DNA of 24,000 nucleotides from Gordonia jinhuaensis (GCF_014639795.1 NZ_BMGC01000009.1:129298-153297), one strand, 5' to 3'. Positions 9,045-18,470 are shown, counted from the first letter of the stretch. The notes: a model not told the origin generated them from the sequence alone. A program made the numbers and translations.

Positions 9045-9441
9045 GTTGTCACAGGCTGTTTGTCTAGGACCTTTGTGTTTGCCTGGAGTTAACCTCGCGT
9101 AATTTACTATCGCGTAGATCGGACCGCTGCCCGGCGCGGAGCGTGTCGTTTACCTGACCGACTCGCGGTGGACCTAACTGTTGTCGCCAGTGCTTGCGAC
9201 AGCTAACGTACCGCGATGCAGGACCCGTTCTCTCGAACCGACGAGCGGGTTCCCGTCTCACGCGGACCGCGATCGGTGTGCGTGAAGCGATTTGGGGGTT
9301 TAGGGGAATTTACGTGCCGGTAACACGCATGATCCATGCCTGTTAATTCGCCCGGTGGAGGATTTCGCGGAGCCAACAAGTCATCCCGAGCTCGCTTTTC
9401 GGTGGAGCGCGGTTACACAGCAATCCTGTGAGAGGGAACGA

Positions 9442-10053
9442 ATGAGCAAGTTCAGCAAGGTGGGTCTGCGTCGCGTCGTTGGCGCGAGCGCGGTCGCGGC
9501 CGCCGCAGCCGTGGGCCTGGCCAGCATGGGAGCGGGCAACGCTGCAGCTGCGTCGCTGCCCAATGGCAGCAAGGTCACGGTGGGTGTCGACGGCACCAAG
9601 ATCGTCCTGAAGCGCACCGGCGAGTCGGCGTACTCGATCCCGTCCCTGGAGTCCAACGGCGCCGGCCGTACCGCTCTGCTGTCGGGCCACTACACCGCGT
9701 CCGCGCCTAAGGGCACTGACGTGTCGTTGTCGGTGGGTGTCGCGGTCGGTTGCCAGGTGGACATCAGCGGTCTCTCGAGCAACTTTGGCGCCAGTGTCAA
9801 CCTGCTCGCTCTGACAGGCAACGCCTCCTTGGGCTTGACTGCTCCGATCACGCCCGGTCAAGCCGGCACGGCAAGCGTTGATGGCGCGGAAGCCGCCAAG
9901 GGTGGCACCGCGACAGTTGACGTCAGCGACTACCAGATCTACCTGCCCACCTGCGCCGGTTACGCACAGGCGCGTACCTTCATCACGGCAACGGTCACCG
10001 GTAACTACTACGTGACGTCCACTCTGTGGGGCGCACCGTTCAGCTTGACCTAA
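9442..10053 (+). CDS. MspA-family mycomembrane porin, paralogue 1
   Basis: 203 aa. Signal peptide MSKFSKVGLRRVVGASAVAAAAAVGLASMGAGNAAA. The mature part is beta-rich, with VGCQVD (compare MspA LGYQIGFP) and C-terminal CAGYAQARTFITATV...LWGAPFSLT (compare MspA GGVLLRPFARLIAS...TYGEPWNMN). GAGAGGGAA RBS before ATG 9442. The track ORF start at 9355 would bury the signal peptide. Confidence 0.72.
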   Translation: MSKFSKVGLRRVVGASAVAAAAAVGLASMGAGNAAAASLPNGSKVTVGVDGTKIVLKRTGESAYSIPSLESNGAGRTALLSGHYTASAPKGTDVSLSVGVAVGCQVDISGLSSNFGASVNLLALTGNASLGLTAPITPGQAGTASVDGAEAAKGGTATVDVSDYQIYLPTCAGYAQARTFITATVTGNYYVTSTLWGAPFSLT

Positions 10054-10131
10054 TCTGCAGCAGATAAGTCCACCTCGACAATCTTGAATTCTTATCTGCC
10101 GCAAGCAGATTGATATTCCGTAAGGGGAATC

Positions 10132-10863
10132 ATGAAGAAGACCACTGCGCGTCGCGCAACCGCTGCTGTCGGGCTCGCCGGCGCAGCGGCCGTCACCGCC
10201 GTGAGCCTCGGCGCCGGCAACGCCGCGGCCTGGGGCAACACTGCCTCGGTACCCGACGCGACCCTCACGAAGACCGTGAGCGGCCTTACCGTCAAGGCTA
10301 AGCTGTTCGACCAGTCCGTCACCTACGCTCGTCCGATCACCACCCTGCCGACCCTGCGCGACGTGTGGGCCTCGGGCAAGATCAGCGTTGAGGTCTCCGG
10401 GGGAGACGTCAAGGGTGGCAAGATCGCATCCGGTTATCTCGTCGGTTGCCAGGTTAACTTCGGTGCCAGCGCGGAGGGCGATGGCGGCTACGACGTATCC
10501 CCCGAGACCACCGGTGGTGGAGTGTCGGGCGGTGAGTCTGTCCCTGTCACCAACACGGGCAACTACACCGGCTCGCCGAGCGCGTCCGGCAAGGCTGGCT
10601 TCACCCTCGGCCCCGGCACCACCAAAAAGGTGTTCCTGATCGATAACACCAATGGTGATCTGAGCCCCGATGCCGACAACTACCACAGCTACGGCAACCC
10701 GTTCACCGGGAACAAGGCTGGAATTGCCTACAGTCAGCAAGAGTTCAGTTACGACGGCTGCGCCGGCTACGCACAGGCCAAGGCCTTCGTGACGGTCAAG
10801 GTGACCACCGACAACACCACCGCGAATCTCACCTTCTACAGCAAGCCCTTCAGCCTCGGCTGA
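10132..10863 (+). CDS. MspA-family mycomembrane porin, paralogue 2
   Basis: 243 aa. Signal peptide ending GAGNAAA as in paralogue 1. LRDVWASGKISVEVSG (compare MspA TREWFHSGRAKYIVAG), SGYLVGCQVNFG, and CAGYAQAKAFVTVKV...FYSKPFSLG. AAGGGGA RBS 3 nt upstream. Confidence 0.78.
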   Translation: MKKTTARRATAAVGLAGAAAVTAVSLGAGNAAAWGNTASVPDATLTKTVSGLTVKAKLFDQSVTYARPITTLPTLRDVWASGKISVEVSGGDVKGGKIASGYLVGCQVNFGASAEGDGGYDVSPETTGGGVSGGESVPVTNTGNYTGSPSASGKAGFTLGPGTTKKVFLIDNTNGDLSPDADNYHSYGNPFTGNKAGIAYSQQEFSYDGCAGYAQAKAFVTVKVTTDNTTANLTFYSKPFSLG

Positions 10864-10885
10864 TCTGCTGCGATCGACATTCGCG

Positions 10886-10927
10886 AAATCGGGCGGAATC
10901 CCTCGGGATTCCGCCCGATTTGTGTTG
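10886..10927 (+). terminator. Rho-independent terminator after porin pair
   Basis: Perfect 17-nt arms AAATCGGGCGGAATCCC / GGGATTCCGCCCGATTT, followed by GTGTTG. Confidence 0.8.
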
Positions 10928-11042
10928 TCGGCGGATTCATTCGAGACCACCCATTGTCCATTCGGCTGGTCTGCGAGCCTAGGGTCTGGTTGGATAACTC
11001 TCGGACGGTCGGGGGTTCGATGACGAACACGTGGAGGATTGT

Positions 11043-16587: not shown

Positions 16588-16631
16588 ACAGACAAACTGC
16601 CGGTCGCACAGAATTCAGTGCGACCGGCAGT
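16588..16631 (-). terminator. Rho-independent terminator after the mycoloyltransferase gene
   Basis: Perfect 14-bp stem ACTGCCGGTCGCAC / GTGCGACCGGCAGT with an 8-nt loop. On the minus strand it is followed by TTGTCTGTG. Confidence 0.7.
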
Positions 16632-16646
16632 TCATGCCCCTCATTC

Positions 16647-16676
16647 GGTGGATGCGGCTGGCAGTCCGCATCCACC
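16647..16676 (-). terminator. Second stem-loop directly after the mycoloyltransferase stop
   Basis: Perfect 11-bp stem GGTGGATGCGG / CCGCATCCACC with an 8-nt loop, 12 nt downstream of the stop. No clear U tract. Confidence 0.45.
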
Positions 16677-16687
16677 GGCTCGGGTGC

Positions 16688-18172
16688 CTACGGCGTGGTG
16701 GTGGGCGCCGGGCAGTTCGGCAGCAGGTCGGTGACCTGGGTCGGGACGGTCGGGCAGGTCGGCGTGGTCGAGCTGCTCGGTGTCGACGTGGTCGAGTCGG
16801 CGGGCGCGGACGGTGTGGTCGTCGGCGTATCGCTGGTGGTCGGCGTGTCGGTCGTCGACGGCGGTGTGCTCGGCTCCGTGCTCGACGACTCGGTGGTGGT
16901 CGCCGGATCCTGCGCAGCCGCATCCTTCTTCACATCAGCGGGGTCGCTGGTCGTGGCGCTGGGCGACTGGCTCGACTCACCGCTCGACTCACCGCTCGAC
17001 GCGGCGTCGGTGCTCGGCGTGCTCGACGACGGGTCTGTGCTGGCGTCGGCCTTCTTCAGGGCGGCCTTCGCGGCGGGCGAATCGGTTGCCGGGATCGCCG
17101 CGGCGGCGAGCACGGTGTCCTTCTGCGTGACGGCCGGAGTGTTCTTCAGCCCGGCGAGCACATCGTCCTTACCATCGGCGATGGCGCGGCCCCAGTTCTC
17201 CCAGGTGTGACCACCGAAGTCGGGGATGTTGATGGTGGAGACACCTGCCTGGCCGGTTTGCAGCTGGAACAGCACGGTCGACACCGCCGAGAGTGCTTCG
17301 AGCAGGATCGCGCTCACCTGGTCCTGCGGGGCCAGCTTGGCCATCTCGGACGGCGAGAGGAAGGCGTTGCCCGACGAGACGATCAGCACCTGACCGTTCT
17401 TCTTCAGCGAGTCGATGTTCTTCGATGCGTCGTGGCCGGTCCAGTCCGCCGGATCCTTCCACATGTTCAGGATGCCCTGCGGGTACCCCGACACAACTGC
17501 TTGAGCTGCGGCGATGCCGAGGGCGCCGATCGGGTTGTCGGTCTGGTAATAACCCGACATCGCCTGGACCACCTTGAACTGGCTGGGATGACGTTCGGCG
17601 AGGTTGACCGCCGGACCTGCCGACATCGAGACGCCGACGATCGCGTTGTTCGACTTGCTGACGCCGAAGTTGGTGTCGAGGTAGTCGGGGAGTTCCGAGG
17701 TCAGGAAGGTCTCCCATTTGACGCTGTCACCCTTGGGACCCTGCCCGTTCCAGTCGGTGTACCACTCCGACGCACCACCCACCGGCATCACCAGCGTGGT
17801 GTCGGTGGAACCGTCGTAGACCTTGGCGGCCTGCACATCGTTGGTCCAGGCCGACCGCTGGTCGGTCGCGCGCATGCCGTCGAGCAGGTACACGCCCTGT
17901 CCGCTGCCGTTGGAGGCGCGGATCTGGACGGTGACGAACCGGCCCATCGACTTCGACCACACCTGACAGTTCTGCACATAGTTCCCCGACGAATCCCACG
18001 AGCACGACGGTCGCAGTTGCTCGGGGTGGCCGGCTTGCGCAGTGGCCTTGTTACCGCCGGTCGCGGTCATCGCCACGATCACCGCGACCAGCGCGACGAT
18101 CGCGACGGCCACCAGTGTCAGTGAGCGCCGGATGATCGGCGGCCGCTGGCTGTCAGGGGTATGTGCAGTCAT
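16688..18172 (-). CDS. Ag85/Fbp-type mycoloyltransferase with long Ser/Thr/Pro-rich C-terminal tail
   Basis: Strong Ag85 blocks: VYLLDGMRA, LVMPVGG.SEWYTDW, VKWETFLTSELP, GVSMSAGPA (nucleophile Ser) and FGGHTWENWG (His). N-terminal TM/signal RRSLTLVAVAIVALVAVIVAMTA. Start taken as ATG 18172 (GAGG 8 nt upstream); the track ORF extends to 18301. Confidence 0.85.
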   Translation of the reverse strand: MTAHTPDSQRPPIIRRSLTLVAVAIVALVAVIVAMTATGGNKATAQAGHPEQLRPSCSWDSSGNYVQNCQVWSKSMGRFVTVQIRASNGSGQGVYLLDGMRATDQRSAWTNDVQAAKVYDGSTDTTLVMPVGGASEWYTDWNGQGPKGDSVKWETFLTSELPDYLDTNFGVSKSNNAIVGVSMSAGPAVNLAERHPSQFKVVQAMSGYYQTDNPIGALGIAAAQAVVSGYPQGILNMWKDPADWTGHDASKNIDSLKKNGQVLIVSSGNAFLSPSEMAKLAPQDQVSAILLEALSAVSTVLFQLQTGQAGVSTINIPDFGGHTWENWGRAIADGKDDVLAGLKNTPAVTQKDTVLAAAAIPATDSPAAKAALKKADASTDPSSSTPSTDAASSGESSGESSQSPSATTSDPADVKKDAAAQDPATTTESSSTEPSTPPSTTDTPTTSDTPTTTPSAPADSTTSTPSSSTTPTCPTVPTQVTDLLPNCPAPTTTP

Positions 18173-18397
18173 GGGTGGAGCCTCGAATTCATCGGTTCTG
18201 CGTGCTGTCCGCGGGGCACTGGGCCCGCCGAGCGGACATGCATGGTTCATCGCGCGCGGGCCGGAAAGTGTTTCAGATGCTGAACCGTTCAGTGCGGCCA
18301 AAGCGCCGAAAACCGGACCTGGATAGGACGTTCCCGCAGGTCAGACGGCCGAAAATTCCACAAGCCGAATGTGTACGGCGGTACAAGTCACCCAGAT

Positions 18398-18470
18398 GGC
18401 AAAAACCGTCCCCCTGAGGTCCGCGGAGGGCAATCTTCCCTCGGCGCCCGTCAGGGGGACGGATTTTGCC
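18398..18470 (-). repeat. Structured hairpin repeat, copy 3 (73 nt, inverted relative to copies 1 and 2)
   Basis: The reverse complement reads GGCAAAATCCGTCCCCCTGA...CGCCGAGGGAAGATTGCCCTCCGCGG...TCAGGGGGACGGTTTTTGCC. The central 26 nt are identical to copy 1, and the basal stem differs by paired substitutions. Lies 52 nt after the stop of minus-strand mscL. Confidence 0.85.

Follow-up and report, generated by a model that had tools for sequence, protein, structure and literature searches.

The 24,000-nucleotide stretch of Gordonia jinhuaensis DNA analyzed here (the window, at its full length) carries a 9.4 kb block of cell-envelope genes between moaB2 and mscL: two MspA-family porin genes (msp1 and msp2), two mycolyltransferase-like genes (est1 and est2), a pair of ATP-binding cassette (ABC) half-transporter genes (abcA and abcB) and a gene, pep50, for a peptide of 50 amino acids (aa). 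Our analysis favors a composite block, made of an old and a young part, over a single insertion, and we put the probability of this reading at roughly 0.7. Comparison with related loci shows that the porin pair stands where it stood ancestrally in mycolic-acid bacteria, between mscL and the small open reading frame (ORF) that follows moaB2, and that this Williamsia/Gordonia-like lineage gained about 7.4 kb downstream of the porin terminator, before mscL. The young genes may export and lipidate a small outer-membrane peptide.

The porin pair between moaB2 and mscL

Gene order in the window was set by frame analysis of G+C content at third codon positions (GC3) and by Pfam scans, which located every block gene that an earlier note on this DNA had placed between moaB2 and mscL (Table 1). 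For synteny, a MoaB2-alignment scan with one genome per species gave 80 loci, taken with 10 kb on each side, and these were searched by tblastn with the window proteins and with a profile built from 42 Msp sequences. The denominators used below are 54 Mycobacteriales loci with enough sequence and 26 Pseudonocardiales or unclassified loci. The closest homologues of both MoaB2 and the Msp proteins are found in Williamsia and Gordonia, where MoaB2 homologues are 68–85% identical to the window protein, which places the organism in the Gordoniaceae.

The small ORF that follows moaB2 is a real, widely conserved gene, judging by its recurrence across genera. Its motif, FG[DE].LP..T.DE...W...PPHH, was found in an ORF after moaB2 in nearly all Mycobacteriales and in several Pseudonocardiales loci, and searches of Pfam and NCBIfam gave no family match for it. 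The encoded PPHH protein measures about 55–60 aa across loci L002–L081. The conserved run that begins to the left of the block therefore ends at position 9044, with this ORF.

At least one MspA-family gene comes immediately after the PPHH ORF and ahead of mscL in about 46 of the 54 Mycobacteriales loci. These include all four Williamsia, all five Gordonia with enough sequence, all six Nocardia and all three Antrihabitans loci, together with Aldersonia, Prescottella, most Rhodococcus and four Mycolicibacterium-type genomes, so that at least seven genera are represented. The order within the pair is kept as well, an msp1-like gene preceding an msp2-like one in Gordonia, Williamsia, Nocardia and the R. 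opacus group; N. donostiensis and the R. opacus group have the pair in tandem duplicate. The first gene encodes a signal peptide that begins MSKFSKVGLRR in the window, with the pattern MSKFSK.GLRR shared by Gordoniaceae and MSENRKSGLRR by Rhodococcus and Nocardia. No porin was detected at the junction, by tblastn or with the MspA profile, in any of the 26 Pseudonocardiales or unclassified loci. Two of the loci, from Rhodococcus sp. H36-A4 and Rhodococcoides fascians (L015 and L031), carry a second msp1-msp2-like pair beyond mscL as well as a weaker MspA-family ORF after moaB2; here porin genes were moved or duplicated around mscL.

Eight Mycobacteriales loci have no junction porin: Hoyosella, M. 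celatum, M. talmoniae and five Rhodococcus. Seven of these show the M. tuberculosis arrangement, with moaB2, the PPHH ORF and mscL directly adjoining at distances of 237–347 nucleotides (nt); in the eighth, R. spongiicola (L017), mscL is also missing from the locus. In M. tuberculosis H37Rv, moaB2 (Rv0984) adjoins mscL (Rv0985c). M. celatum and M. talmoniae, with gaps of 237–310 nt, mirror this adjacency. The earlier note was right to describe the block as envelope-related and absent from the M. tuberculosis-type junction. By this synteny, the sampled slow-growing mycobacteria and a few Rhodococcus and Hoyosella lineages lack the porin pair here, with moaB2 next to mscL.

Since porins occupy the junction in so many Mycobacteriales loci, the porin part of the block is old, and the M. 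tuberculosis-type adjacency is best read, most simply, as a loss. The earlier note had treated the whole block as a lineage-specific module, a description that fits the roughly 7.4 kb of est1, abcB, abcA, pep50 and est2 but not the porin pair and its leader. That M. tuberculosis might instead be the exception, through deletion, is largely what we find for the porin part, the rest of the block being lineage-specific. Two points weigh against placing the porin pair at the ancestral junction. Corynebacterium, Tsukamurella, Dietzia and Segniliparus lie outside the 80 loci, and the ancestral call is one of parsimony over about 54 loci, which leaves formal room for independent gains of the pair.

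Both porin genes are secure family members, with PF09203 scores of 85 bits for msp1 and 127.8 bits for msp2 against a curated cut-off of 22.9, and all homologues of msp2 are MspA-family porins from Gordonia, Williamsia and related taxa. Sec signal peptides were recognized by eye at the two N-termini (MSKFSKVGLRRVVGASAVAAAAAVGLASMGAGNAAA for msp1 and MKKTTARRATAAVGLAGAAAVTAVSLGAGNAAA for msp2). The two proteins can be aligned with each other only over their last 50 aa, at 40% identity, and pairwise searches of solved structures in the PDB gave no match to either, MspA included. In M. smegmatis, msmeg_5483 lies beside the mprAB-pepD-moaB2 genes (MSMEG_5485-5488). Paired MspA-like porins have been described as NfpA/NfpB in N. 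farcinica and PorARr/PorBRr in R. ruber (PMC9233653, PMC5310785), and msmeg_5483 is M. smegmatis mspC (PMC13098993). The window genes resemble all of these in being two adjacent, Sec-dependent genes for proteins of about 20–24 kDa with a PF09203 match, and the Nocardia, R. ruber and Mycolicibacterium genes occupy the same slot after moaB2; the R. ruber locus in our sample (L077) has its porin pair at the moaB2-mscL junction. Unlike the NfpA/NfpB-type pairs, the window subunits are strongly divergent from each other, and a hetero-oligomer is putative here, gene pairing being what is seen. A second difference from the published paired porins is that the window alleles differ sharply between near-identical strains (see below).

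The porin genes are preceded by a non-coding spacer that the earlier note had singled out as an unusually A/T-rich start of the block, some 400 bp long. It is indeed A/T-rich, its G+C content of 57.7% standing against 66.5% for the whole window and falling in the lowest 1% of 397-nt windows. Cross-species comparison indicates that this spacer is a conserved porin promoter and leader, not an insertion scar. Across all genera the spacer upstream of the first porin gene is always 367–586 nt long. An alignment of the spacer from ten Gordoniaceae revealed a conserved block, GTGTTT.CC..GTTAAC, and an invariant ribosome-binding region, AATCCTGTGAGAGGGAACGAATG. A promoter-like element, CTGTTG..(~17 nt)..TAACGT, lies near 9183–9216, about 240 nt 5' of the start codon, and is recognized by cross-species conservation only; a sigma-70 consensus scan of 8700–19300 returned no promoter. 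Rfam at gathering thresholds had no match in the window, the long porin leader included. Because a promoter-like block and a ribosome-binding region precede the genes and a terminator-like hairpin with a T-run closes them, the porin operon looks like a self-contained transcription unit.

The lineage-specific genes

The young part of the block spans about 10930 to 18390. The identical order est1-abcB-abcA-pep50-est2 was found only in the closest relative, a Logan assembly (L001) with 96.9% identity to the window over 20.8 kb. Elsewhere in Gordoniaceae the stretch between msp2 and mscL is variable: it is empty in Gordonia sp. OPL2 and G. sesuvii, holds one ABC gene and an IS3-type orfA in Gordonia sp. 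B21, carries a related but rearranged gene set in G. lacunae, and contains unrelated genes in three other Gordoniaceae.

The two esterases, which the earlier note had grouped together as Ag85-like, are of different types, a distinction firmly supported by comparison with solved structures. Only est2 keeps that label. For est1, the best match is C. glutamicum Cmt1 (4H18/8QHF), aligned over the full length at an E-value of 1e-69, followed by PS1 (6e-47) and Ag85A (3e-27). The predicted protein is 41% identical to Cmt1 over 310 residues; its Ser/Glu/His triad aligns with S189, E310 and H341 of Cmt1 (numbering of PMC11927696), and both cysteines are present. Where MytC has a specific inserted segment before the catalytic Glu (Cmt1 residues ~270–304), est1 and its Gordonia relatives also carry an insert, which in est1 falls short of that in Cmt1 by 8 residues; by alignment the segment is absent from Ag85A and est2. 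Homologues of est1 with 50–62% identity occur throughout Gordonia, Williamsia, Nocardia, Rhodococcus and Hoyosella, and mytC orthologues have been noted in Gordonia, Nocardia and Rhodococcus (PMC5310785). By contrast with est1, est2 is closest to Ag85A (E 3e-40, 39% identity), then to Ag85B and Ag85C, and matches Cmt1 weakly. Its catalytic triad is conserved. It differs from the antigen 85 (Fbp) proteins in having an N-terminal membrane anchor, not a cleavable signal peptide, and an additional C-terminal tail of about 150 aa rich in Ser, Thr and Pro.

The two ABC genes can be assigned just as firmly, on sequence grounds, to the Rv1273c/72c-like type. The best solved structure for abcA is chain A of 8WCW (E 1e-151) and for abcB chain B of the same entry (E 1e-147). 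The window pair shares with Rv1273c/72c the gene order, the overlapping stop and start, and the combination of one degenerate with one consensus ATP site (PMC12038006): as read from the sequence, the Walker B motif of abcA (LLDDP) lacks the catalytic Glu, whereas that of abcB (LILDEA) is consensus. The window abcB differs in that its nucleotide-binding domain is enlarged by about 50 inserted aa (residues ~505–560; the ABC_tran match covers 188 residues against a 137-position model), and the likeness is one of type, which covers ortholog and paralog alike. A further difference from Rv1273c/72c is that here and at six other loci the ABC pair is accompanied by a MytC-like gene, and often by genes for small peptides as well.

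Gene callers found pep50 in L001, L087 and L088. Its N-terminus, MGSTFGLPDGLES, has neither a basic n-region nor a hydrophobic h-region. An exhaustive search of 1.84 billion representative proteins returned one relative, of 48 aa and 57% identity. A 439-aa match (P0282) was rejected as a repeat-protein artefact.

Genes like abcA, abcB and est1 recur as a trio, with identities to the window genes of 42–45%, 37–40% and 50–62%, respectively. As a same-strand operon the trio is found next to the porin pair in G. lacunae (L045), at a different genome site in Gordonia sp. LUNF6 (L084/L085), and on the metagenome contigs L095, L113, L120 and L122, with partial contigs L096 and L124. Of the seven distinct modules, five are adjoined by small ORFs that have high GC3 and a strong ribosome-binding site. 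The window lineage has one, of 50 aa; L045 has four, of 27–33 aa, L095 four homologous ones, L120 two, and L122 one, which follows est1. The two sets of four are tandem arrays (L045 18315–19157, minus strand; L095 919–1690) of acidic peptides, each with a GGAG-type ribosome-binding site, and in both loci the array is followed by a terminator-like hairpin and then by the abcA-abcB-MytC-like operon. On the unrelated contigs L113 (11468–14019) and L120 (4182–5545), two to three tandem paralogues of about 215 aa also stand next to the module; they gave no usable family and no Pfam family apart from one weak GNAT match.

The peptides look alike: an amphipathic helix that closes with [VLIF][TS]G[SA] leads into a tail rich in Ser, Gly, Asp and Glu, and a signal sequence is lacking. 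A profile built from ten module peptides is matched by pep50, and it picked out the fourth ORF of L045 and L095 at E 0.003, everything else in about 3 Mb of six-frame ORFs scoring above E 0.7. The fourth peptide gene shows 91% DNA conservation between L045 and L095, compared with 34–53% in most spacers.

Proposed export and mycoloylation of the peptide

Cmt1 O-mycoloylates the signal-less proteins PorA, PorH and ProtX, whose route across the plasma membrane is not known (PMC13643282, PMC5310785), and it is the only C. glutamicum enzyme known to O-mycoloylate proteins (PMC9671496). Acylation sites are Ser/Gly-rich (PMC11066868). The Ser/Gly-rich stretches of the module peptides resemble this published site preference, and resemblance is all that is claimed. 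The window shares with the Cmt1 and PorA/PorH/ProtX system an est1 product with the triad and both cysteines and, near est1 genes, small (27–50 aa) signal-less peptides rich in Ser and Gly. It differs in having a single peptide in place of the PorA/PorH pair, in the shorter est1 insert, and in that peptides of the window and the modules have no detectable sequence relation to C. glutamicum PorA/PorH; acylation here is putative. To our knowledge, neither cmt1 nor porHA has been reported to adjoin an ABC exporter in C. glutamicum.

Gene neighborhood and resemblance together suggest, tentatively, that the ABC pair exports the leaderless peptide and that est1 mycoloylates it. The exporter would carry the signal-less peptide, or alternatively a lipid, over the plasma membrane. 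The est1 enzyme would then pass a mycoloyl group from trehalose monomycolate to Ser or Thr in the Gly/Ser-rich region of the peptide, and this modification would anchor the peptide in the mycomembrane. The est2 enzyme would mycoloylate arabinogalactan or trehalose. More generally, we consider it possible, though doubtful, that the small signal-less peptides form an undescribed family, cargo of Rv1273c/72c-type exporters, O-mycoloylated by the adjacent Cmt1/MytC-type enzyme and inserted into the mycomembrane.

Several observations weigh against the export and mycoloylation of the peptide. The nearest characterized ABC relative is described as transporting drugs, lipids or copper, and not as exporting peptides (PMC12038006, PMC13202654). 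The est1 gene of the window is inverted, so that it converges with the ABC genes and shares no operon with them. Most MytC-like genes stand without an adjacent ABC pair (about 70 of 80 metagenome loci, as well as W. maris and N. yunnanensis). On the peptide side, pep50 matched no Pfam or NCBIfam family, those of PorA and PorH included, even at E 10; the peptide family is loose, its profile having been built from ORFs hand-picked in this analysis; and the modules of L084/85 and L113 have no peptide gene.

The absence of peptide genes from those two modules is what would be expected if the ABC pair were instead a lipid or drug exporter like Rv1273c/72c, delivering a cell-wall lipid precursor to est1 and est2, the small ORFs being irrelevant, regulatory leaders or the product of chance. 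We hold this alternative to be about equal in probability to peptide export. Its best solved relatives are MsRv1273c/72c, whose natural substrate is not known and for which a cell-wall lipid precursor is suspected by the authors of that study (PMC12038006), and the top NCBIfam similarity, although below cut-off, is to MsbA-type lipid exporters. Against it, the peptide ORFs beside five of seven modules show strong ribosome-binding sites, high GC3 and conserved frames, and pep50 has a full-length homologue of 48 aa. The Cmt1-type identity of est1 also argues against a lipid cargo, since Cmt1 is the sole protein-acylating mycoloyltransferase known in C. glutamicum.

An unlikely third account has pep50 and its relatives as secreted bacteriocins or signaling peptides with a dedicated ABC exporter, the esterase link being incidental. 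A small peptide gene upstream of an ABC exporter, the tandem peptide arrays of L045 and L095, and alleles that are hypervariable between near-identical strains, as at pherotype and bacteriocin loci, would all fit. However, abcA and abcB carry no C39 peptidase domain, the peptides have no double-glycine (GG/GA) leader and are acidic or neutral and Ser/Gly-rich, not cationic, and genes for immunity, sensor kinases or modification are missing from the block. Nor would this account explain why seven modules all have a MytC-like gene linked to them.

The variation between strains concerns the porins as much as the peptide. Between the window and L001, synonymous divergence (dS) was 0.47 for msp1 and 0.54 for msp2, and 0–0.11 for the other fifteen genes. 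In bins of 200 nt, identity to L001 falls to 52–87% across 9600–11000, that is, over the 3' half of msp1 and all of msp2. In this hotspot the ratio of nonsynonymous to synonymous divergence (dN/dS) is 0.15–0.21, in strains that are otherwise 97–100% identical. Given the low dS elsewhere, a divergent porin allele looks to have been imported by recombination. The metagenome locus L087 is near-identical to the window up to the start codon of pep50 and divergent from there on; its pep50 allele, of 48 aa, is 56–57% identical, and the spacer downstream is not alignable. Separately, positions 1–4400 are 100% identical to L001 except for one 9-nt indel, the remainder differing by 1–5%, so that the locus is a recombination mosaic even outside the porin genes.

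These porin and peptide allele patterns are typical of surface-exposed molecules, and the products are likely to be targeted at the cell surface, by phages for instance. Phage infection of C. glutamicum requires ProtX and PorA, both of them small mycoloylated proteins (PMC9671496). Under the proposed scheme the porins and the peptide would be exposed at the surface, which would explain the swapping of alleles between near-identical strains.

Regulation, flanking features and implications

The earlier note had suggested that the block might be co-regulated with the neighboring MprAB-PepD stress locus, a suggestion for which we found no support. Aligning the upstream regions of mprA in Gordoniaceae revealed a direct repeat, CTYAG-N5-TCTCAG. 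Its exact copies, present in 66 Mycobacteriales and Pseudonocardiales loci, lie almost exclusively upstream of mprA and pepD. In mycobacteria, MprA regulates mprA itself and pepD, which the placement of the repeat fits, and the repeat is probably the MprA binding site. Within the block, the repeat was not found upstream of msp1, est1, est2 or pep50, and it was absent from the porin leader in every locus examined; one copy in L003 comes near the leader, some 430 nt upstream of msp1, and falls within the small ORF, at its 3' end. The copy upstream of mprA in the window implies that mprA probably starts at the ATG near 4004, not at 3947. Since overexpression of MprA in C. glutamicum lowers cmt1 and porin transcripts (PMC12113857), indirect control of the block by MprA is possible. 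The C. glutamicum MprA motif TKTTAAGAAM was also tried and set aside as too loose and too A/T-rich for this genome; it gave 12 matches against 6.4 expected, none of them in the block promoters.

At its right end, as the earlier note had seen, the block meets a 79-nt palindromic repeat that folds into a stable hairpin (-59 kcal/mol, z-score -6.3). The other two of its three copies in the window (2854–2932 and 3842–3920) bracket an AbiEi-like gene (2845–3825), and among 88 loci the repeat was found only in this lineage (L001). The repeat at one block edge, the two copies around the AbiEi-like gene, the IS3-type orfA at the equivalent spot in Gordonia sp. B21 and the occurrence of the module at different genome sites in other taxa might point to a horizontally acquired island from a mobile element, with the hairpins as scars. 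We rejected this improbable origin. The composition of the block is native, with GC3 of 0.77–0.85 against 0.79–0.88 in the flanks and G+C of 64.9% against 67.5%, a profile with no sign of foreign DNA. No integrase, transposase or transfer RNA gene was found in the window, the repeat stands as a single copy at one edge of the block instead of as a flanking pair, and all homologues come from the same bacterial family.

Least probable of all is that the whole 9.4 kb was inserted as one lineage-specific envelope module co-regulated with MprAB-PepD. In its favor are the envelope character of all the genes, the identical block in the closest relative and the C. glutamicum MprA effect. Synteny already largely refutes it: porin pair and leader sit at the junction in most Mycobacteriales loci, and the remaining block genes are absent from other Gordonia and Williamsia species. 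The porin operon is also bounded by a promoter-like block and a terminator of its own, and the MprA-box-like repeat is missing upstream of the block genes.

The flanks are as follows. The left part of the window holds a cobW-like gene, a glycine-transporter-family gene and the AbiEi-like gene, then mprA, mprB, pepD and moaB2. To the right of mscL lie a SAF-domain gene, a 5-formyltetrahydrofolate cyclo-ligase gene, a galU-like gene and moeA.

Table 1. Positions of the features discussed, counted from the first nucleotide of the window
Feature	Position	Strand	Basis or remark
MprA-box-like direct repeat	3966-3981	+	upstream of mprA; pattern match with 1 mismatch
MprA-box-like repeats, three tandem half-sites	6344-6370	+	upstream of pepD
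moaB2 (MogA/MoaB family)	8108-8767	+	PF00994, E 3e-20; left anchor of junction
Small ORF (~58 aa, C-terminal ...NIPPHHI)	8869-9044	+	travels with moaB2
Porin promoter and long leader, A/T-rich non-coding	9045-9441	+	GC 57.7%; conserved blocks
msp1, first MspA-family porin subunit	9442-10053 (ORF from 9355)	+	PF09203, E 7e-24
msp2, second MspA-family porin subunit	10132-10863	+	PF09203, E 5e-37
Terminator-like hairpin and T-run closing porin operon	10903-10928	+	3' of msp2
est1, secreted Cmt1/MytC-type mycoloyltransferase homologue	11088-12089 (ORF from 11031)	+	PF00756, E 4e-27
abcB, Rv1272c-type half-transporter	12247-14292	-	ABC_membrane and ABC_tran; consensus ATP site LILDEA
abcA, Rv1273c-type half-transporter	14289-16037	-	ABC_membrane and ABC_tran; degenerate Walker B LLDDP
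pep50, gene for 50-aa signal-less Ser/Thr/Gly-rich peptide	16247-16399	-	GC3 0.88; ribosome-binding site GAAGGAG
est2, Ag85-type mycolyltransferase homologue	16688-18172	-	PF00756
79-nt palindromic repeat	18396-18474	.	between mscL and est2; self-complementary
mscL	18522-19187	-	PF01741, E 6e-35; right anchor of junction

Altogether, the comparison marks out the porin pair that follows moaB2 as a landmark conserved among mycolic-acid bacteria. The lack of Msp-type porins in M. tuberculosis has long been known, and reading its moaB2-mscL adjacency as a loss would trace this lack to one particular site of deletion, next to the MprAB-PepD stress locus. For the younger genes, the recurring neighborhood of peptide, exporter and Cmt1-type enzyme offers one hypothesis that touches two open questions, how porin peptides cross the plasma membrane (PMC13643282) and what the Rv1273c/72c transporters carry (PMC12038006). 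If true, it would for the first time define genetically a route by which leaderless mycoloylated peptides of the outer membrane are exported, and would suggest which class of substrates the Rv1273c/72c transporter family naturally carries.

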